Origin: Chthoniobacteraceae bacterium
GTDB lineage: Bacteria > Verrucomicrobiota > Verrucomicrobiia > Chthoniobacterales > Chthoniobacteraceae
NCBI GenBank assembly: GCA_031409335.1
Contig: JANNWY010000026.1
Location: 1-10,827, forward strand
Reading direction: 5' to 3'
DNA: 10,827 bases
Under the pieces are notes generated by a model. The model saw nothing but the letters and a program-made list of their open reading frames with translations. It was not told the DNA's origin and did not search any database. Positions 1 to 10,827 of the stretch are shown piece after piece (the first letter of the stretch is position 1; the number at the start of each line of letters is the position of its first letter). The position numbers and the translations under genes were made by a program.

Positions 1-174
1 GTGCCGCCGAAGATGGAGTCGATCACTTATGAGATCATCGTGGACACCGATGAACCCGACCACCGACTGGAACTGCTGCACGACAATGTGAAAAAGTTTG
101 GCACGGTCTTCAACACTGTGGCCCCTGGCACCACACTCAGCGGCGTGCTGCATCGGAAGGAGGCGCAGACATGA
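1..174 (+). CDS. 3' end of a probable OsmC-family protein (partial, runs in from the left edge)
   Basis: Frame 1 is open from base 1 and reads VPPKMESITYEIIVDTDEPDHRLELLHDNVKKFGTVFNTVAPGTTLSGVLHRKEAQT*. TGA 172-174 overlaps the next ATG (ATGA, 171-174). The PPKM..I.Y...VDTDE....LELLH.NV.K.GTVFNT pattern resembles OsmC-like C-termini (recognised from memory, not searched). Not in the ORF track. Confidence 0.65.
   Translation: MPPKMESITYEIIVDTDEPDHRLELLHDNVKKFGTVFNTVAPGTTLSGVLHRKEAQT
157..163 (+). promoter_or_regulatory. Shine-Dalgarno site for the P1B ATPase
   Basis: AAGGAGG ends 7 nt upstream of ATG 171. Confidence 0.75.
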
Positions 175-2183
175 TCGCTGAACCACCGCCCCGTGAGTCG
201 CCCCCGATTAAAACTGAATCCGGCGCTGGAGAACGTAGCCACGACCACGAGCACGAGCATGGCGGTGCGCCGCACTTCCTGCCACACTGGATGCAAGAGC
301 GCTGGACCGTGTTGACGGTAGCTGTCGCCGGACTGGCGCTGGTCATCGGATTCTTCGGGGAGAAGTATTTTGGCCTGCCGCATTCCGTCGCCCTTGCGTT
401 CTACATTCTGTCCTACGTGGCCGGTGGCTACGATTTCGCTTGCGCGGCCTTGCCCGCGCTCCTTCGCGGGAAGTTCGACATCGATCTTCTGATGATCGCG
501 GCGGCGGCTGGCGCGGCATTGCTTGGCGAATGGGCGGAGGGCGCGTTCCTGCTGTTTCTCTTCTCGCTCGGCCATGCCGGGGAGCACTACGCGATGGATC
601 GGGCGCGCAATGCCGTCGGCGTTCTCGGAAAACTCATGCCCCGCACCGCGTTCACGAAACGTGGAGACCGCCTGGAAGAAGTGCCGGTGGAACAACTCAC
701 CGTGGATGAAATCGTCGTCGTAAAACCCGGCGAGCGCGTGCCGGTGGATGGAGTCATCATGGCGGGCGAAAGCAGCATCGATCAAAGCGCGATCACTGGC
801 GAGAGCGTGCCGGTGGAGCGCAATCCCGGCGACGAGGTGTTTGCGGGAACGATCAATCAGGACAATGCGCTCGACGTGCGCATGACGCGGCTGGCCCGCG
901 ACAACACCCTCGCCCGTGTGATGCAGCTCGTCGCCGAAGCGCAGGAACAAAAGAGCCCGACGCAGCGGTTCACCGAAACCTTCGCGCGCCGCTTCGTTCC
1001 GACGGTGCTCATCGGCACGTCCCTTGTCATCGTGCTGCTGCCGCTCGTGTTCGGCTGGACGTGGAGCGCGAGTTTCTACCGCGGCATGTTGTTGCTGGTG
1101 GCCGCTTCGCCCTGTGCGCTGGCCATCGGCACGCCCGCGGCCGTGCTCGCGGGCATTGCCCAGGCGGCGCGTCGCGGAGTGCTGATCAAAGGCGGGATTC
1201 ACTTGGAAAGCCTCGGACGCCTCAACACCGTGGCGCTCGACAAAACCGGCACGCTCACCACCGGTCTTTTCGCAGTCTCGCAGGTCATCGGCTTTGACGG
1301 CACACCGGAGGACGAGGTCCTGCGCATCGCCGCCGCCGTCGAGGAACAATCCAGTCATCCGCTGGCCGCCGCCATCGTGAAGACAGCGAAAGAGCGCGGC
1401 ATCAGTTTCCCCTCGGCCACCGACATCGAAAACCTCGCGGGCAAAGGAATCCAGGCGCGTGTGGAGGACGCTGAAGTTCTGGTCGGAGCCATCCGCGCCT
1501 TTGCCGGAGATGCCGCGGCGGAGAAAGGGAAGCCGCTGGCGGAAGCCATCGCCAAGCTGGAAGCCGATGGCCAGACAACGGTGATCATTCGTCGCGCCGG
1601 AAAGTTCATTGGCGTCATCGCCCTCGCCGACGAGCCGCGTCCTCTTGCCGAAGAGGTGATGAAGCGCCTGCGGGCGCAGGGCATCGAGCGCCTGTTGATG
1701 CTCACCGGTGACAACACTTCCGTCGCCCGCCGGGTTGCGGAAAAAGTCGGTATCACCGAAGTCCGCGCGGAGTTGCTGCCGGGACAAAAGCTGACCATCG
1801 TTCGCGAACTGGAGAAGGATCGTGGCGTCATCGCGATGATCGGCGATGGCGTGAACGATGCGCCCGCGCTGGCCGCGGCCACAGTCGGCGTGGCGATGGG
1901 TGCCGGAGGCACTGCGGTTGCCTTGGAGACCGCCGATGTCGTGTTGATGGGCGATGATCTCGGCAAGCTGTCTTTTGCCATCGGCCTGAGCCGGGCCAGC
2001 GCGCGCATCATCCGCCAGAACCTCGTGATCGCGCTCGGAGTCATCGCCCTGCTCCTGATTGCCTCGGGGTTTGGGGTCATCCCGCTGAGTGTCGCGGTCG
2101 TCCTGCACGAAGGCAGCACCATCGTGGTCGTCCTGAACGCCCTGCGGCTCCTTGCGTGGCACGAGCCCGCCGTCTCCATCTGA
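171..2183 (+). CDS. Heavy-metal-translocating P-type ATPase, P1B-4 subgroup (Co/Zn/Cd/Fe exporter type)
   Basis: Contains TGES (actuator), SPC in the metal-binding helix (AASPCALA), DKTGTLT (phosphorylation site), SHPLA, TGDN, GDGVNDAPAL and HEGST in the last helix. It has a short N-terminal HDHEHEH tract and no CxxC HMA domain. Confidence 0.95.
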   Translation: MIAEPPPRESPPIKTESGAGERSHDHEHEHGGAPHFLPHWMQERWTVLTVAVAGLALVIGFFGEKYFGLPHSVALAFYILSYVAGGYDFACAALPALLRGKFDIDLLMIAAAAGAALLGEWAEGAFLLFLFSLGHAGEHYAMDRARNAVGVLGKLMPRTAFTKRGDRLEEVPVEQLTVDEIVVVKPGERVPVDGVIMAGESSIDQSAITGESVPVERNPGDEVFAGTINQDNALDVRMTRLARDNTLARVMQLVAEAQEQKSPTQRFTETFARRFVPTVLIGTSLVIVLLPLVFGWTWSASFYRGMLLLVAASPCALAIGTPAAVLAGIAQAARRGVLIKGGIHLESLGRLNTVALDKTGTLTTGLFAVSQVIGFDGTPEDEVLRIAAAVEEQSSHPLAAAIVKTAKERGISFPSATDIENLAGKGIQARVEDAEVLVGAIRAFAGDAAAEKGKPLAEAIAKLEADGQTTVIIRRAGKFIGVIALADEPRPLAEEVMKRLRAQGIERLLMLTGDNTSVARRVAEKVGITEVRAELLPGQKLTIVRELEKDRGVIAMIGDGVNDAPALAAATVGVAMGAGGTAVALETADVVLMGDDLGKLSFAIGLSRASARIIRQNLVIALGVIALLLIASGFGVIPLSVAVVLHEGSTIVVVLNALRLLAWHEPAVSI

Positions 2184-3284: not shown

Positions 3285-3491
3285 ATGAAACCGATCTCGC
3301 CGCAGCCAACGAAACGGGACTGGCACAGCCAGTCTTCCGAGGAAGCGCTGGCGCAGCTTGGCCCCGCAGCGACCGGACTTTCTACCGCCGAAGCAACAAA
3401 ACGCCTCGCCGCTGACGGCACGAGCGTGGCTGTGGAACAGGGTTGCGTGGGCAGGCGCGAGACAACCTTCACCGCCACCGCGAAGCCATGA
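3285..3491 (+). pseudogene. Truncated N-terminal fragment of a P2-type cation-transporting ATPase (Cation_ATPase_N domain)
   Basis: DWHSQSSEEALAQLGPAATGLSTAEATKRLAADG matches the WH..S.EE...L.....GLS..EA..RL...G(PNEL) start of Ca/Mg-type P-ATPases. Similarity stops at about 3419 and the ORF ends after 68 aa, against roughly 900 aa for an intact protein. Confidence 0.8.
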
Positions 3492-4613: not shown

Positions 4614-6404
4614 ATGACATCCACGACCCAACATTTCACCCGCCGCCACTTTCTGCGCAACGCCGCCGCCGTCAGTGCGCTGGCGGGATTTGAAAGCCTC
4701 GTCCCGGCCTACGCGCGACCCGGAAAAAAGGCGCGCGAAACGGGAGGACCGATTGAACTCACCATCGACAAACAGTCCATCGACATCGGCGGCCGGCGCG
4801 CGTCGGCCATCGCGGTCAATGGCACGGTGCCGGGACCGCTCGTGCGTTTGCGCGAGGGCCAGGATGCCGTGATCCACGTGACGAACCGGCTCGCGAAGGA
4901 GAGCACGTCGATCCATTGGCACGGCTTGATCCTGCCATTTCAGATGGATGGCGTGCCGGGCGTGAGTTTCGCGGGCATCGGAGCGGGCGAGACTTTCACC
5001 TACCGCTTTCCCGTCCGGCAGAACGGCACCTATTGGTATCACAGCCACACGGCGGTGCAGGAGCAGCTTGGCCTCTATGGGCCGTTGATCATAGACCCGG
5101 CTGACGGCGAGCCGTTTCACTACGATCGCGAGTATGTGGTGATGCTCGGGGACTGGCTTTCCGGCGATCCGATGGCGATGGTCGCCAAGCTCAAGAAGCA
5201 AAGCAGTTACTCGAATTTCCAGCGGCGCACTGTCGGTGATTTCATCGGCGATGCCGGCAAGGACGGCCTGCGGGCGGCGCTCGCGGATCGTTGGGCGTGG
5301 GGCAAGATGCGGATGGACCCGACGGACATCGCTGACATCACCGGCCACGACTTCACCTTCCTCATGAACGGCCTCGCGCCGGACTCCAACTGGACCGGCC
5401 TCTTCCGGCCCGGCGAGCGTGTGCGGCTGCGCTTTATCAACTCGGCGGCGGTGACGTTCTTCGATGTGCGCATCCCCGGCCTGCGGATGACCGTCGTTGC
5501 CGCCGATGGACAAAATGTAAAGCCGGTGACGGTCGATGAATTCCGCATCGGAGTCGCGGAAACCTACGACGTCATCGTCGAGCCGCACGACAGCCGCGCT
5601 TACACGATCTTCGCCGAAACCACCGACCGCAGCGGCTTCGCGCGCGGCACACTGGCCCCGCGTGCCGGCATGAGCGCGCCTCTGCCCGAGCGACGCAAGC
5701 GCCCCGTGCGCACGATGGCCGACATGGGCATGGCCATGACCGGCGACATGCCGGGAATGCCGGGGATGAAAGGAACCGCGGATTCCGCGAGCGGAGCGAT
5801 GCCGGACATGCCGGGTATGAAGGGCAACTCGATGCCGGGCATGAAAATGGACGCCGCGCCCGGCGGTGCTGCGCCCGCGATGCACGGCCCGGACAAACAC
5901 GGCCCTGGCAATTCGGCCGTCGCCATGTCTCCGCAAAACCGGCTCGGCGAACCCGGCACCGGACTAGAAGGAATGCCGTGGCGCGTCCTCGTTTACAACG
6001 ACCTCCAAAGCCTCGTCGCCAATTACGACCGGCGCCCGCCCGAGCGCGAAATCGAACTGCACGCCACCGGCAACATGGAACGCTACATGTGGGGTTTCGA
6101 CGGCAAGAAATACTCCGAAGCCAAAGCGCCCATCGAGTTCAACTACGGGGAGCGCCTCCGCTTCACCTGGGTGAACGACACGATGATGGATCACCCGCTG
6201 CACCTGCACGGGATGTTCATGGAACTCGACAACGGCCACGGCGCGCACAATCCGCGCAAACACACCGTCGTCCTCAAGCCAGGGGAAAAGCTCTCGCTCA
6301 ACATCACCGCCGACGCGCCCGGCCTCTGGGCCTTTCATTGTCACATCCTGTATCACATGGAAATGGGCATGTTCCGCGTGGTTTCCGTCGCGCGAAAAGA
6401 CTGA
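4614..6404 (+). CDS. copA: Copper-resistance multicopper oxidase, CopA/PcoA family, Tat-exported
   Basis: ATG 4614 gives the twin-arginine signal TRRHFL. All four multicopper oxidase Cu motifs are present (HWHG, WYHSH, HPLHLHG, HCHILYHMEMGM), along with WGKMRMDPTDIAD and LHATGNMERYMW family motifs and a Met-rich insert. The track start at 4443 overlaps the upstream gene and is unlikely. Confidence 0.96.
   Translation: MTSTTQHFTRRHFLRNAAAVSALAGFESLVPAYARPGKKARETGGPIELTIDKQSIDIGGRRASAIAVNGTVPGPLVRLREGQDAVIHVTNRLAKESTSIHWHGLILPFQMDGVPGVSFAGIGAGETFTYRFPVRQNGTYWYHSHTAVQEQLGLYGPLIIDPADGEPFHYDREYVVMLGDWLSGDPMAMVAKLKKQSSYSNFQRRTVGDFIGDAGKDGLRAALADRWAWGKMRMDPTDIADITGHDFTFLMNGLAPDSNWTGLFRPGERVRLRFINSAAVTFFDVRIPGLRMTVVAADGQNVKPVTVDEFRIGVAETYDVIVEPHDSRAYTIFAETTDRSGFARGTLAPRAGMSAPLPERRKRPVRTMADMGMAMTGDMPGMPGMKGTADSASGAMPDMPGMKGNSMPGMKMDAAPGGAAPAMHGPDKHGPGNSAVAMSPQNRLGEPGTGLEGMPWRVLVYNDLQSLVANYDRRPPEREIELHATGNMERYMWGFDGKKYSEAKAPIEFNYGERLRFTWVNDTMMDHPLHLHGMFMELDNGHGAHNPRKHTVVLKPGEKLSLNITADAPGLWAFHCHILYHMEMGMFRVVSVARKD
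5715..5900 (+). repeat. Met-rich MPGM repeat insert in CopA
   Basis: Translates as MADMGMAMTGDMPGMPGMKG...AMPDMPGMKGNSMPGMKM...MHGPDKH. ATGCCGGG recurs in the DNA. Confidence 0.85.
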
Positions 6405-6416
6405 TCGAAGCCGCGT

Positions 6417-7685
6417 ATGAAACTCAAATTTTCCACCGCACGCACCGCCCTCGCGACGACGCTCATGCTCACCGCGAGTGTCTTCCAGCCCAGCGCCGCG
6501 TGGGCGCAGGCAGACATGAAGGACATGCCCGGCATGGCTCCAAAAGCCACGCCCGCGCCGAAGAAATCCGATGCCGCAGCGACTCCCAAACCTGCCGCTG
6601 CCGCCATGTCCCAGCAGGAGATGGATGCGATGCCGGGAATGGCCCCGAAAAAGGCTTCGCCCGCGGCGACCTCGACTGCCAGGCCCGCCAAAGCCGCTAC
6701 GTCCCAAGCGGAGATGGACGCCATGCCGGGAATGAGCCCGGCTAAACCCTCCGCCAGCAAATCCGCCGGTTCCGCGCCCGCCAAGAACGACATGGCGGGA
6801 ATGCCGGGCATGGCAGCCCCCGGCGTATCCAAGACCAAAGGCATGGCCGGAATGCCGGGGATGCCGGCAGGCGACGCATCCACTCCGCAGCGCATGAGCG
6901 CCCCCGGCGTCTTCATTCTCCGCCCGCCGCAAAAGTGGGTGCCGCCACGCGGCGACAACCGCGCCGCCGAACTGCTCTCGCGCCCCGCGCTGGAACAGCT
7001 CATGAAGCCGCTGCCGCCGCCCGTCGAGGACTCCATGCTGCACAGCTTTCTCCTCACCGAACTGCTCGAATACCGCGCGAACAGCGCGGGACCGAATTCG
7101 TTCGTATGGGACTTCGTAGGCTGGTTCGGCGGCGACTACAATCGGCTCTGGATCAAGACCGAAGGCCGACAGGATCTATCCGACGGCAATCGCGGCGAAG
7201 GCGATCTTCAGCTTCTTTACGGCAGGCTCATCGCACCGTTCTGGGATTTCCAGATCGGCGTCCGCGGCAAATCCAATCTCGGTTCCGGTTTCAAAAACAA
7301 CACCCGCACCTACGCCGTCATCGGCCTGCAAGGGCTGGCCCCCGGCAACTTCGAGGTCGAGCCCGCCATCTACATCAGCGACCGCGGCGAAGTCTCCGCC
7401 GAGCTGACCGTGAGTGCCGATCTCTACCTCACCCAGCGCCTCGTCTTGCAGCCGCGTTTTGCGGGTGAAGTGTCGGTTCAAGGCGACGACCGCTTCGGCA
7501 CCGGCTCCGGCGTCACCGAGACCGACATCGGCCTCCGCCTCCGCTACGAAATCCGCCGTGAGATCGCACCCTACATCGGCGTCTCCTGGCTGCGCAGCTA
7601 CGGCGAAACCGCCCGCATTTCCCGGCAGGAAGGCGAAGCCACCGACACCGTCGCCCTCGTCCTAGGCCTCCGGCTTTGGTGGTGA
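6417..7685 (+). CDS. copB: Copper-resistance outer-membrane protein CopB/PcoB with extended Met-rich N-terminus
   Basis: Starts 12 nt after copA. Has a Sec signal (AWA|Q), CopB motifs WFGGDYNRLWIKTEG, LYGRLIAPFWDFQIG, GLQGLAP, LTQRLVLQPR and GLRLRYEIRREIAPYIGV, and an aromatic C-terminus (LRLWW). Confidence 0.95.
   Translation: MKLKFSTARTALATTLMLTASVFQPSAAWAQADMKDMPGMAPKATPAPKKSDAAATPKPAAAAMSQQEMDAMPGMAPKKASPAATSTARPAKAATSQAEMDAMPGMSPAKPSASKSAGSAPAKNDMAGMPGMAAPGVSKTKGMAGMPGMPAGDASTPQRMSAPGVFILRPPQKWVPPRGDNRAAELLSRPALEQLMKPLPPPVEDSMLHSFLLTELLEYRANSAGPNSFVWDFVGWFGGDYNRLWIKTEGRQDLSDGNRGEGDLQLLYGRLIAPFWDFQIGVRGKSNLGSGFKNNTRTYAVIGLQGLAPGNFEVEPAIYISDRGEVSAELTVSADLYLTQRLVLQPRFAGEVSVQGDDRFGTGSGVTETDIGLRLRYEIRREIAPYIGVSWLRSYGETARISRQEGEATDTVALVLGLRLWW
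6513..6869 (+). repeat. Five MxxMPGM units separated by Ala/Pro/Lys/Ser linkers in the CopB N-terminus
   Basis: Units are MKDMPGM, MDAMPGM (twice) and MAGMPGM (twice). The two SQxEMDAMPGM units start at 6609 and 6702, 93 nt apart, and are similar at DNA level. Confidence 0.88.
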
Positions 7686-7802: not shown

Positions 7803-8804
7803 ATGTGTGATCCCGCCAATTCCGGCCAGCGCACGCTGGAAGTGCTCTCCGAGTCGCAAATGTATCGCGACTACGAACGGGCTTTCACCGAAGGCACGGG
7901 ACTCCCGCTACGGTTGCAAGGGCCGAACCTGCTCCACATCGTCCGCTACGCGAAAAAACAGGAGAATCCATTCTGCGCGCTCATGGCAAAAACCGACCGG
8001 AACTGCACGCCGAGCAGCGCGCAATGTTACGCTTTGCAATGCAGGCTGGAGGAGGAGGCGCAGTTTGCGCCGAGGACGCTCAAGGGCTTCGCGGGACTGT
8101 GCGAAACCGTAGTGCCAGTGCGCGTCGGCGAGACCGTGATCGCATTTCTCCATACCGGGCAGGTCTTGTTGCAGCGACCCGACAAAGTGCAGTTCAAACA
8201 AATCGCCGCGACGCTCCTCAGATGGGGTGCGGAGGTCGATTTGAAAAAACTGGAGGAATGCTATTTCCGCACGCGCGTCCTCAAGCTGAAGCAATATCAG
8301 GCGTTGATCGAGTTGCTGAACGCCTTCGCCCGGCAACTCGCCTCGTGCTGCCGCGACCTCATTTTGCAGTCCCAGCAAAAGGATTCGCCGGCCATTGGGC
8401 GGGCGCGCACCTTTATCGCGGACCACTCGGACGAAGAGCTGTCGCTCGCATCCGTCGCGCGCGTGGCGAACATGAGCACGACCTATTTCAGCGAGAAATT
8501 CAAGGAGGACGGCGGGATCAACTTCGTCGATTACGTGGCGCGCACGCGCGTCGAGAAAGCACGCAATCTATTCCTAAATCCCAACCGGCGGGTGAGTGAA
8601 GTGGCGTTCGAGGTGGGATTCCAGTCGCTCTCGCAGTTCAACCGCGCGTTCAAGAAAGTCGCCGGTCAATCGCCGCGAGAATGTCGCGCTGCATTCGCAG
8701 CGACGCAGAACGCAGCGGACGGGTCGTACCGAGGAAGTGCGGACTATTTCCGAAGGGATGCGGAGCGGAGTTTTCGCCGCGGCTCTAAAGTGTGCGTTCC
8801 ATGA
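7803..8804 (+). CDS. AraC-family transcriptional regulator with N-terminal PocR ligand-binding domain (start ATG 7803; TTG 7758 possible)
   Basis: N-terminal YERAF...TGLPL...ENPFCALM...FAGLCETVVPVRVG...FLHTGQV is PocR-like. The C-terminal double HTH reads LSLASVARVANMSTTYFSEKFK...RVEKARNL...VSEVAFEVGFQSLSQFNRAFKKVAGQSP. Confidence 0.9.
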   Translation: MCDPANSGQRTLEVLSESQMYRDYERAFTEGTGLPLRLQGPNLLHIVRYAKKQENPFCALMAKTDRNCTPSSAQCYALQCRLEEEAQFAPRTLKGFAGLCETVVPVRVGETVIAFLHTGQVLLQRPDKVQFKQIAATLLRWGAEVDLKKLEECYFRTRVLKLKQYQALIELLNAFARQLASCCRDLILQSQQKDSPAIGRARTFIADHSDEELSLASVARVANMSTTYFSEKFKEDGGINFVDYVARTRVEKARNLFLNPNRRVSEVAFEVGFQSLSQFNRAFKKVAGQSPRECRAAFAATQNAADGSYRGSADYFRRDAERSFRRGSKVCVP

Positions 8805-8865: not shown

Positions 8866-9087
8866 ATGAAGACACTGACACTCGCACTAATGGCACTGGC
8901 CTTCGCCGCCTCTCCCGTGCTCGCACAGGACAAGCCCAAGCACGAGAAGATGAAGGCCACCAAAGAATGCGGCACCTGCTGCAAACAAGGCGGCGACTGC
9001 TGCGACAAGTGCGCCCACGATAAATGCGCGCCCTGCTGCGACAAGAAAAAGGAAGCGCCGAAAACGTCTTCGGCTGCCATCCGCTAA
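8866..9087 (+). CDS. Small exported Cys-rich, metallothionein-like protein (73 aa)
   Basis: ATG 8866 follows an A/C-rich leader. Signal peptide MKTLTLALMALAFAASPVLA precedes a 53-aa mature region with 9 Cys in 24 residues, Lys-rich and free of aromatic residues. It is the 3' part of track ORF 8596-9087, whose upstream part overlaps the AraC gene. Confidence 0.8.
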   Translation: MKTLTLALMALAFAASPVLAQDKPKHEKMKATKECGTCCKQGGDCCDKCAHDKCAPCCDKKKEAPKTSSAAIR

Positions 9088-9177
9088 AACGCCACCCGCT
9101 CATGCACTGCGCAGCGCTTCGGCCTGCGCAGTGCGGGGCGAAAACTCAACAAACAGAAAGACAGGCAAAGTTATGAA
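9087..9177 (+). repeat. Intergenic hairpin-plus-leader element, copy 1
   Basis: Aligns by eye with 10568-10658 over 92 columns with 7 substitutions and 2 single-base indels. Contains GCACTGCGCAG (9104-9114) and its reverse complement CTGCGCAGTGC (9124-9134) around C-GC-TTCG-GC. Confidence 0.92.
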
Positions 9178-9529
9178 TACAAATCGCACCTTCTTCAATC
9201 CCACGCGTCGGCTCACATGGCTGCTTTGCGCCGCACTTATCGCCATCGCATTGCCCGCCTTCGCAGGCAAAAAGAAACATAACCGAGGTCATGGCAGCTA
9301 CACCCATCAATACAATTCCCATTACGGCGGCCAGTCCCGTGGGCACTCCGGTGGGCACTCAAGAGGCCGCAACTTCGACCGATACACTCCCTCCTACGGT
9401 TACTACGACGGTTACTACGACGACTACCCCGTCTATTCGCCCCGCTACCGAGGTCACAGCAGCTACGGCCACAGCAACTATGGCCGCAACCGCCACAATT
9501 CACTAAGCTTGCAATTCAATCTTCGATAA
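9173..9529 (+). CDS. Exported low-complexity Gly/His/Tyr/Ser/Arg-rich hypothetical protein (118 aa)
   Basis: ATG 9173 sits at the end of the repeated leader. Signal peptide ends in LPAFA|G. The 87-aa mature region has 9 His and 14 Tyr. Stop is 11 nt before the next ATG. Confidence 0.78.
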   Translation: MNTNRTFFNPTRRLTWLLCAALIAIALPAFAGKKKHNRGHGSYTHQYNSHYGGQSRGHSGGHSRGRNFDRYTPSYGYYDGYYDDYPVYSPRYRGHSSYGHSNYGRNRHNSLSLQFNLR

Positions 9530-9540
9530 CTGAACACACC

Positions 9541-10563
9541 ATGAAATTTCAACCGACAACCTCGTCCGCATTCATCCAGCGCTTCGCCCTGCTTGCGGCG
9601 CTCTGTTTCATCTCCGGCTCGGTGCTCCGGGCCGCCGACGCGCCGCCCAAGTCGCCGCCAGCCGAAGCTGAATCGCAGCGCCTGGTCTCACTCGTTTTGC
9701 TTCTCAGTGAACCTCGCACCATGGATGCCGGCGCCGTTGCGCACGCGGTGTCCAAAGCCGTGGGAAGCGAAGTGCCGGAAGGTGCTGTCGTCGCCCAGCC
9801 TCCTTCATTCATCGTCAAGGTCGGTCCCGGCCGGTTCGCCATCAATAGCGTGGACGAGCCGTATTTTGCGGAAAGCGACAAGCTCGCTGCCGAACTGAAG
9901 GATTCCACCCTCGCCAAGGCCATTCGCGAACACCGTGCCTGGCTGTCTGTGGACTGGATTGAAAAAGATGAGAAGGCAGACCTTCGCAAAGTCTATCAGC
10001 AAATCGGTCTGATCCTCGCGCAACTGGTGAGAAAAGACACTCTCGCTGTTTACAGCCCGGACACCGACCAGTTTCACCTCAGCGACGCGACTCTTTTAGT
10101 TCATCTGAAAAGCGAGGATCCGCTCCAAGACCTGTATCCCGCAGGCGTGGCTGCCGCTGCGGACGGCAAGGTCACCATCAGCAGCGACGACCCGCAGCTC
10201 ATCGCGGCGCAAACGGAGGCAGACGAGCGCTGGCCGGAGTTTCTGCGCGCATTCAAAGAACGCGGCAAGGACCAATACTTTGCGGTTAAAGGCCGCATCC
10301 TTGAGGGTGACAAGGGCGAATATCTCTGGCTTCAAGTCAGCGACATAGACGACAAGCTCGTTCACGGGAAACTCGACAACGATCCCGCGACGCTGAAAAA
10401 GGTCGCGCGAGGCGCCGACCTGCACATTCCCATCGACGAAGTGGATGACTGGCTCTACAGCACCGGTTCTGGCAAGGACGCAAGCTCAGGCAAGGAGGAG
10501 GTGAAGGGCGGTTTTACGCTTCGCCTATTCGACCAGCTCGCAAAAAACAAACGTCAGCAATGA
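9541..10563 (+). CDS. Exported DUF2314 (YegJ-like) domain protein
   Basis: N-terminal signal peptide (VLRA|AD). The C-terminal A...A.....F...F.VK......E.LW.......G.LDNDP.......G........V.DW...GGFT pattern is characteristic of DUF2314 (from memory, not searched). Confidence 0.75.
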   Translation: MKFQPTTSSAFIQRFALLAALCFISGSVLRAADAPPKSPPAEAESQRLVSLVLLLSEPRTMDAGAVAHAVSKAVGSEVPEGAVVAQPPSFIVKVGPGRFAINSVDEPYFAESDKLAAELKDSTLAKAIREHRAWLSVDWIEKDEKADLRKVYQQIGLILAQLVRKDTLAVYSPDTDQFHLSDATLLVHLKSEDPLQDLYPAGVAAAADGKVTISSDDPQLIAAQTEADERWPEFLRAFKERGKDQYFAVKGRILEGDKGEYLWLQVSDIDDKLVHGKLDNDPATLKKVARGADLHIPIDEVDDWLYSTGSGKDASSGKEEVKGGFTLRLFDQLAKNKRQQ

Positions 10564-10567
10564 CGTG

Positions 10568-10658
10568 AAACTCCACTCGCTCATGCACTGCGCAGCGCTT
10601 CGGCACTGCGCAGTGCGGGGCAAAACACAACAAACAGAAAGAAAGACACAGCTATGAA
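10568..10658 (+). repeat. Intergenic hairpin-plus-leader element, copy 2
   Basis: Arms GCACTGCGCAG (10585-10595) and CTGCGCAGTGC (10606-10616) flank C-GC-TTCG-GC-A. They are followed by GGGGCAAAACACAACAAACAGAAAG and ATG 10654 at the same register as in copy 1. Confidence 0.92.
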
Positions 10659-10785
10659 GACGAAAGACACGGTCATCCGCAGGATCATCGCGGGGACACA
10701 ATCGAAATGGCTTCGGCCTTCGCTGCTGACGCTGGCGATCATCGCCACCGTCCTCGCCGCGACCGGCTGCACGCCCCACCACTAA
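10654..10785 (+). CDS. 43-aa putative prelipoprotein; predicted mature product CTPHH
   Basis: Reads MKTKDTVIRRIIAGTQSKWLRPSLLTLAIIATVLAATGCTPHH*. It has a basic n-region, a hydrophobic h-region and a lipobox-like ATG|C. The ATG is positionally equivalent to ATG 9173 in the repeat. It is below the ORF-track length cutoff. Confidence 0.7.
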   Translation: MKTKDTVIRRIIAGTQSKWLRPSLLTLAIIATVLAATGCTPHH

Positions 10786-10798
10786 GTCATCCTCCACC

Positions 10799-10827
10799 AT
10801 GAAAACGACACTTCCATCCACACTCGC
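10799..10827 (+). CDS. Possible start of a further small or exported gene (partial at right edge)
   Basis: ATG lies 13 nt after the previous stop and reads MKTTLPSTL(A), similar in style to the neighbouring MKT starts. Only 9 full codons are visible. Confidence 0.4.

Follow-up and report, generated by a model that had tools for sequence, protein, structure and literature searches.

The window analysed here, a stretch of 10,827 nucleotides (nt), represents a whole contig (C26; JANNWY010000026.1) of a 7.9-Mb, 98% complete genome assembly of a Chthoniobacteraceae bacterium, and its genes find their nearest relatives in records labelled Chthoniobacterales and other Verrucomicrobiota. Its upstream stretch encodes a heavy-metal P1B ATPase, the multicopper oxidase CopA, CopB and a PocR-AraC regulator, together with an alcohol dehydrogenase and a hydrolase. 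Behind the regulator follow four consecutive, co-oriented open reading frames (ORFs A to D), and these genes, their regulator and their putative promoter are the subject of this text (Table 1). The original prediction had read export signals on all four, which is borne out: each starts with a basic N-region and a hydrophobic stretch, followed by an AxA site or a lipobox, as recognised by a simple script. The hydrophobic stretch, taken as the 11-residue Kyte-Doolittle maximum, scores 2.4-3.1 in the four ORFs; a crude genome-wide signal-peptide screen missed ORF B and was not used as control. A fifth ORF, suspected to begin at the window edge, indeed does so and is completed on contig C220, which shares a 141-nt overlap with the window end and carries the gene run onward. 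Besides this ORF E, C220 encodes an aldehyde dehydrogenase, a histidine (His)-rich paralogue of ORF D, a YHS protein, a methionine (Met)-rich exported protein, an FAD/NAD/2Fe-2S reductase, a multihaem cytochrome and two more P1B ATPases, the Cd/Zn type being represented on this contig as well. The four window genes are the opening of a longer metal-island gene run. General family scans gave no Pfam or NCBIfam match for ORFs A, B and D; these scans included no search aimed at PcoE/SilE.

Table 1. Features of the window (positions in nt; aa, amino acids)
Feature	Position	Strand	Basis
Heavy-metal P1B ATPase, Cd/Zn-type	171..2183	+	TIGR01525, TIGR01512
CopA multicopper oxidase	4614..6404	+	TIGR01480, 821 bits vs cut-off 479
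CopB, Met-rich N-terminal repeats	6417..7685	+	PF05275
PocR-AraC regulator, 333 aa	7803..8804	+	Pfam PocR, HTH_18; alignment, tree
Operator-like 39-bp motif; TGCGnAG at 8738 and 8759, 21-bp period	8732..8770	+	matrix, 49 bits
Predicted -10 element TAAAGT	8786..8791	+	fixed-offset nAnnnT
ORF A, 73 aa; predicted signal peptide and 53-aa Lys-rich mature chain; candidate exported metallothionein-like protein	8866..9087	+	family profile, genome loci
13-bp hairpin, UUCG loop, directly 3' of ORF A, within repeat copy 1	9104..9134	+	fold; relatives
ORF B, 118 aa, 9 His, 14 Tyr; predicted signal peptide and Gly/Tyr/Ser/His-rich low-complexity chain	9173..9529	+	8 clusters
ORF C, 340 aa; exported-type two-domain protein, C-terminal DUF2314 (Imm34)	9541..10563	+	DUF2314, E 2.9e-14
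Hairpin, second copy, within repeat copy 2	10585..10616	+	fold, repeat
ORF D, 43-aa prolipoprotein-like, ends ATG-C-TPHH	10654..10785	+	cluster family
ORF E start, 55-aa lipoprotein-like ORF	10799..10827	+	completed on C220:113-280

In ORF A, the pattern CxxCC-x5-CCxxC-x4-CxxCC packs nine cysteines (Cys) into 24 residues, corresponding to 17% of the 53-aa mature chain and 38% of the 24-aa core. A profile with which 7,992 candidates were scored delimits a family of 57 clusters; an exhaustive search of 50% representatives returned nine matches, one of them a chance cadherin. Among the 57 sequences, five Cys are invariant and each of the others is conserved in no fewer than 90%. The full pattern with exactly nine Cys is found in 49 of the 57 clusters and a hydrophobic N-terminal stretch, according to the script, in 55, export itself being predicted. 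Between six genes, differences in the core number 13, 33 and 92 at codon positions 1, 2 and 3, respectively. ORF A is a conserved, unannotated family of Verrucomicrobiota. Exported Cys-rich mini-proteins with related spacing (L033 in genome G022, P0056, P0057, P0068 and P0069) form a wider, more distant family whose context was seen once, beside an ABC transporter. No match was found among PDB sequences; the structural model of ORF A (predicted local distance difference test, pLDDT, 64) shows almost no regular structure, and its lack of a Foldseek match and of a VIA match at Z>=2 is uninformative. Viral contigs yielded 125 pattern matches, none of them confirmed, and plasmids yielded none.

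Recurrent linkage to metal-resistance genes, which the original prediction had named as a check for the small genes, is clear for ORF A. The genome collection holds 27 ORF A loci from 23 assemblies. Genes for CopA, CopB or a P1B ATPase lie within the fetched DNA of 14 of them, including 8 of the 9 loci of at least 15 kb. When Met-rich, YHS or DUF6799 genes are counted as well, 25/27 loci hold an island gene, the two others being contigs of 5.8 and 2.7 kb; YHS genes occur in 12/27. The most constant partner (22/27 loci) is the Met-rich gene, represented on C220 by a 384-aa exported protein (G000:C220:2149-3303; L024), for which the match to Metal_resist is weak and below the cut-off (E 1e-4). 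In one protein, ORF A is fused to a Met-rich DUF6799 domain; among solved structures, CopK ranks first for a four-sequence DUF6799 profile, albeit weakly (E 0.027). A search for the CopK family itself was uninformative, since no control genome matched. Within one sample of 301 genomes, copB is present in 5/5 genomes with a close ORF A and in 5/296 others. With the own genome excluded and one distant hit included, the ratio is 4/5 versus 5/295 (p 1.9e-6), related genomes not being independent of each other. Two genomes flagged as unpublished (G198 and G184) enter only the denominators of the tallies from this sample.

A feature that the original prediction had missed ties these genes to the regulator. 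Alignment of the regions upstream of ORF A revealed a 39-bp motif, for which a matrix was built from 15 sites of other genomes; within the matrix only TGCGnAG repeats (columns 6 and 27), the TTTCCG box being single. The genome contains three strong sites (51, 49 and 37 bits), followed by next-best scores of 20 and 19, and two block shuffles of the genome produced no site at >=16 bits. Each of the three adjoins one close regulator paralogue and is followed, after 78-95 nt, by a gene for a small exported Cys-rich protein. The exact pattern occurs in 10/301 genomes, six of which are copB carriers, and the reversed control in none. In a prospective test, 20 regions around close regulator copies were considered, minus eight already seen through ORF E or the pattern: the motif stands just downstream of 8/12 copies picked by protein similarity alone, as opposed to 0/20 distant copies (p 5e-5). 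At a fixed offset, nAnnnT, which lies outside the matrix, is present in 53/66 non-redundant sites versus a mean of 1.5 at other offsets, as expected of a sigma-70 -10 element; counted from this element, the second TGCGnAG would span about -39 to -33. A recognised copper gene is encoded at most 5 kb downstream of 25/66 sites, the commonest recognised targets being CopAB, efflux systems of the CusCBA type and Cu P1B ATPases, and the gene next to a site mostly encodes an exported protein rich in Cys, Met or His; as many of the loci were fetched through ORF A, these target shares are not unbiased.

A direct repeat with a period of 21-22 bp, a fixed -10 element with the downstream half-site at -35 and co-occurrence with the regulator are the features of AraC/XylS-type promoters, so that the ORF A promoter has, as far as predicted from its elements, the anatomy of an AraC-activated one. 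The available sections of PMC4514859 give a 21-bp period for XylS and MekR sites, and direct repeats with a period of 21-22 bp upstream of or touching the -35 region for XylS-Pm, MekR, AraC-PBAD and MtlR. The motif differs from these promoters in its new sequence, the PocR sensor domain of the adjacent regulator and the linkage to copper genes. It is likely the binding site of the adjacent PocR-AraC protein.

Metal binding is a possible role of PocR cysteines. One clade (support 100/99) unites the six regulator copies that immediately precede ORF A, and all have lost the Cys of C-F-A-G; the first PocR Cys is missing in most copies before ORF A and kept in the window copy. As the window regulator lacks one conserved PocR Cys, the signal may be relayed by one of the intact paralogues encoded on C61 and C195. 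A 4-residue insertion in the PocR region is common to most copies before ORF A. The regulator's reading frame in the window (7803-8804) overruns the usual end by about 35 codons and takes in its own motif and -10 element. A more distant PocR-AraC group (35-47%) is widespread (109/301 genomes) and lacks the motif; one of its copies (G000:C37:47634-48644) and one in L143 are neighbours of cbb3 oxidase genes, and both could sense oxygen.

CopA and CopB of the window are true members of the canonical copABCD-RS/pcoABCDRSE systems. The original prediction did not see CopC and CopD in the window, and the same applies to the genome (98% complete), in which CopD finds no match and no typical CopC is present, the sole CopC match sitting in a 1562-aa open frame elsewhere. 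No copRS was found beside copAB in the window or on C220. With no CopD and no typical CopC, the niche of a periplasmic copper binder is open.

ORF A is a candidate for this niche. In being small, with many Cys in CC and CxxC motifs, few aromatic residues and a metal-resistance context, it is like the metallothioneins SmtA/BmtA and MymT. Unlike them, it carries signal-peptide features and is thus predicted to be exported, and it has no sequence match to BmtA/SmtA and no match to their zinc-finger fold, the fold comparison resting on the weak model. An SmtB-type sensor was not seen beside ORF A. Few bacterial metallothioneins are characterised, and the available sections of PMC3323870 describe metallothioneins as cytosolic. 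Small size, export and a location bordering cop/pco loci also characterise the binders PcoE/SilE and CopK, and the island DUF6799 proteins are weakly CopK-like. CopK uses Met/His, as do PcoE/SilE, whereas ORF A would bind via Cys and ORFs D and E are predicted to be lipid-anchored peptides; control is exerted by two-component systems there and by a predicted PocR-AraC regulator here. The available sections of PMC7558416 present PcoE as a sponge that takes up Cu in the first line, and Csp1 as an exported Cys-thiolate store of Cu(I). ORF A is predicted to share export and Cu(I) storage by thiolates with Csp1. The latter is a Tat-exported, pre-folded four-helix bundle; the signal of ORF A is of the Sec type, and its 53 mature residues are predicted to form almost no regular structure. 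ORF A probably works like a metallothionein or a PcoE-type sponge, yet it would not be a member of the BmtA family. Literature searches, which covered freely accessible papers without supplements, found no exported bacterial metallothionein and no His-tailed micro-lipoprotein; metagenomic metallothionein screens could list ORF A. Within the same scope, nothing joined PocR-AraC proteins to copper control, and no copper regulator was described for Verrucomicrobiota.

The predicted mature product of ORF D is the lipidated peptide C-T-P-H-H. Lipoproteins are recognised by a lipobox, which all 66 clusters of the ORF D family (among 70 candidates) carry in the form [AVL]-[TS]-G-C. ORF D also has a basic N-region and a hydrophobic H-region, and the host encodes the processing enzymes LspA and Lnt. 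By its sequence features, ORF D is lipoprotein-like, and its mature part would be extremely short: in 65/66 clusters the mature tail would comprise 3-7 residues (2-6 after the lipobox Cys) with two or three His, most often CKPHH (26), CTPHH (14), CQPHH (5) or CPSGHPH (4). The search favoured sequences sharing query words and was limited to 23-76 aa and so under-counts longer forms, of which P0135 and the C220 paralogue (G000:C220:1698-1916) were found; the paralogue shares the signal peptide of ORF D and ends in three D-S-D-H-R repeats. With the lipobox Cys at position 39 in most members, the N-region has an unusual length, and the signal region changes freely. CTPH might also be read as a ligand loop of the cupredoxin kind found in amicyanin, a reading that was ruled out, as 17 of the 65 short tails have other lengths and the lipobox is constant. 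ORF D is found in 4/27 ORF A loci. Three of four metagenome loci with ORF D adjoin island genes (a CxxC protein; a Met-rich gene and an HMA-P1B ATPase; an outer-membrane efflux protein); the fourth, L086, looks spurious and was left out of the context count. At one of these loci, L084, an extracytoplasmic function (ECF) sigma factor takes the place of the 39-bp motif. ORF E keeps one Cys, one His and three Met in 14/14 aligned sequences, and of six new full-length matches (L087, L090, L091, L093, L094 and L095) five lie near a motif site, L094 being the exception. The families of ORFs A, D and E are thus conserved in copper islands.

ORFs B and C fit less well into the picture of four metal-ligand mini-proteins. 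The potential ligands of A (nine Cys) and D (CTPHH) stand, His makes up just 10% of mature ORF B, whose end is an alternating hydrophobic strand, and the claim fails for ORF C, a protein with 2% His and 0% Cys after the signal and without a ligand cluster. The predicted structure of ORF C (pLDDT 73) found no Foldseek match at E 0.001. Close relatives of B and C occur in only 4/27 ORF A loci, and close matches are present in 3/151 (ORF B) and 7/151 (ORF C) family genomes. In G367 and G006, ORF C homologues at 42% identity are each preceded by a more His-rich ORF B relative (profile probability 96% and 94%, with the caveat of low complexity) and are located near a Cu-type P1B ATPase; one of the loci also contains copAB and NirK-like genes, the other an ECF sigma factor and a Metal_resist anti-sigma factor. 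Since the pair recurs in copper islands, the view of B and C as pure passengers was dropped. More clusters of small His-rich exported ORFs lie beside B-C relatives (L159:8557-11712 and L160:11516-12282).

A 90-nt repeat, present at 9087-9175 and 10568-10656 with 90% identity, folds (z about -4.4) and contains the hairpin. Two copies of a conserved structured leader had been proposed in the original prediction; the folded repeats are real, the leader role finds no support. In relatives, the hairpin trails the ORF A stop codon whichever gene comes next (B, D, E or the Met-rich gene), a second copy lies 3' of ORF C wherever B-C is present, and L044 shows ORF A, hairpin and ORF D in direct succession. 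A leader RNA is ruled out, as the position of the hairpin goes with the end of ORF A and not with the start of B or D. An intrinsic terminator is ruled out by the lack of a U-tract; the tail is A-rich, and the hairpin is absent from the terminator scan list. The suggested cassette-like nature does not hold: attC sites of integron cassettes and repetitive extragenic palindromic elements are ruled out, because the 7.9-Mb assembly has only these two copies and Rfam gave nothing beyond chance on the window (three chance miRNA matches). The core ends typical of attC sites were not seen in the sequence. Pairing is kept in 94% of cells across 14 copies, with two pairs doubly changed, and the covariation score is reached by 3/500 shuffles, a value inflated by related sequences. 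The hairpin is probably a 3' stabilising stem of the ORF A message, duplicated at the entry of B-C.

We lean, by slightly more than an even chance, towards an AraC-activated operon that buffers copper in the envelope, with ORF A as an exported metallothionein-like protein. A regulator dimer would sit on the repeat, with its downstream half overlapping the -35 region, and activate the promoter in response to a presumed copper signal. ORF A would be exported by Sec and hold several soft metal ions, most likely Cu(I), with its nine thiolates, in a role like that of a metallothionein or of the PcoE sponge. The hairpin would shield the 3' end of its message, so that ORF A may be made in excess. ORFs D and E, once lipidated, would keep copper at the membrane via His or His/Met, and B-C may be an older two-gene unit, inserted between the two hairpin copies, with ORF B as a weaker His-based binder. 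The original idea that the mini-proteins take over sequestration thus finds partial support in the linkage of A, of D in few loci and, more weakly, of the B-C pair, and loses ORF C as a ligand protein. Should the copper-buffering reading be correct, an exported thiolate sponge would widen the metallothionein class to the oxidising envelope, where it becomes a question how Cys stay reduced; a gene with a lipidated pentapeptide as its entire mature product would be a minimal metal chelator that is cheap to synthesise; and these bacteria would have a new way of handling copper. The motif offers the phylum a ready, if predicted, operator-regulator pair with which the signal of PocR-AraC proteins is directly testable. 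A bolder version is rather doubtful: a copper regulon of the Verrucomicrobiota's own, in which PocR-AraC cysteines sense copper and turn on a Sec-exported metallothionein and a five-residue lipopeptide (lipid-Cys-x-Pro-His-His), replacing CopC/CopD/PcoE and CopRS.

Several findings weigh against copper buffering by this operon. Half of the copB genomes (5/10) have no ORF A match, and the distant ORF A relative in G022 adjoins ABC-transporter genes without copB. The Pfam metallothionein families match none of the 57 ORF A members at E up to 1, and the nearest ESM Atlas cluster, named 'putative Metallothionein' (0.88), is a lead only. Exported ORF A Cys could become oxidised to disulfides by a genome-encoded fusion of VKOR with a CxxC thioredoxin-like domain; as DsbD is present and DsbB finds no match in the genome, the redox state of exported ORF A is the key question. 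On the supporting side, its odd Cys number would leave at least one free thiol. The signal region of ORF D shows no synonymous excess (86 synonymous and 250 non-synonymous codon differences). Regarding the motif, 3/12 close regulator copies lack a site and one has only a 17.7-bit site, and the copAB genes of the window have no motif in front. The motif lies at most 2.6 kb upstream in 21/27 ORF A loci and at most 200 nt upstream in 13/27, counts that are partly circular because several matrix seeds stem from ORF A loci. Of the 66 sites, 34 precede only island genes of unproven function and seven no reference gene; the first genes include an acetate kinase, an N-ATPase-like operon behind YHS, a PNPOx-like and an fn3 protein. 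ORF C relatives at 32-33% identity are found in a non-metal context, and DUF2314 is listed as the immunity protein Imm34 in the available part of PMC3482391.

The last point feeds an improbable explanation, according to which unrelated genes collected as cargo downstream of a strong promoter on a mobile island; B-C could then be a secreted peptide with an Imm34-type immunity partner and A a disulfide-rich peptide. The gene order downstream of ORF A varies freely, B and C are rare among its loci, and there are weak matches (E 0.008-0.5) to the Cys-rich MSSP family in 16/57 ORF A members and to Big defensin in one. ORF C has the DUF2314 domain of Imm34 at its C-terminus, a domain given as of unknown function in the available part of PMC8466066; it differs from Imm34 in its predicted signal peptide, an N-terminal domain without family and a His/Gly/Tyr-rich partner gene. 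No toxin or poly-immunity context was seen in the window, C220, L159, L160 and L161, and ORF B matches no known family. ORF A keeps the same metal genes beside it across records labelled Chthoniobacterales and Verrucomicrobiales, is fused once to DUF6799, and the B-C pair appears again in the copper-type islands of G367 and G006, all of which argues against cargo.

The main rival, though still unlikely, is a low-oxygen or redox regulon, in which PocR cysteines sense redox or hold an Fe-S cluster, ORF A is a disulfide/redox partner of the reductase, membrane protein and multihaem cytochrome usually encoded behind it, and copper genes are included because Cu(I) stress climbs without oxygen. It draws on the reductase gene in 12/27 and the cytochrome in 10/27 ORF A loci, on NirK-like, azurin-like, acetate kinase and N-ATPase-like genes behind motif sites, on the cbb3-linked regulator paralogue on C37, and on aldehyde and alcohol dehydrogenases, glucoamylase and glucose-6-phosphate dehydrogenase in the islands. 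This paralogue and the other distant regulator copies lack the motif, however, and both the recognised targets, led by copper efflux and CopAB, and the ligand-rich exported first genes speak for copper. It is likewise quite improbable that the regulon is as supposed and A, D and E instead deliver copper to CopA oxidase, NirK or azurin, feed CusCBA, or have Ag, Zn or Cd as their preferred metal. In favour of this are loci shared with CopA, NirK-like and azurin-like genes and CusCBA-type operons, as well as P1B ATPases of the Cd/Zn type both in the window and on C220; nine Cys in 24 residues suggest a cluster rather than a single transfer site, and the copB genomes without an ORF A match indicate that it is not needed for CopA loading.

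Some further observations concern the surroundings. In the window, a short ORF at 3285-3491 is apparently a remnant and presumably resembles the N-terminus of a cation-transport P-type ATPase. A second copAB pair (G000:C157:7-3830 and C61:1-160) lies 3' of a CusA-type gene, and several of its frames look broken by stops or shifts. Downstream on C220 (G000:C220:5199-8704; L024), a conserved four-gene unit encodes a membrane protein, the FAD/NAD/2Fe-2S reductase, another membrane protein and the multihaem cytochrome; it could send electrons to the envelope, keeping Cu or thiols reduced. In genome G009 (L130), the motif stands before a YHS gene and an N-ATPase-like operon, and that genome has no close regulator match. 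The other two strong motif sites of the genome (G000:C61:3602-3961 and C195:109356-110138; L025 and L027) precede exported CxxC proteins. The same runs contain an outer-membrane efflux gene and a stand-alone gene for an ATP-synthase-epsilon-like beta-sandwich, and their relatives continue into CusB/CusA-type genes; the epsilon-like gene is recurrent in many such islands.

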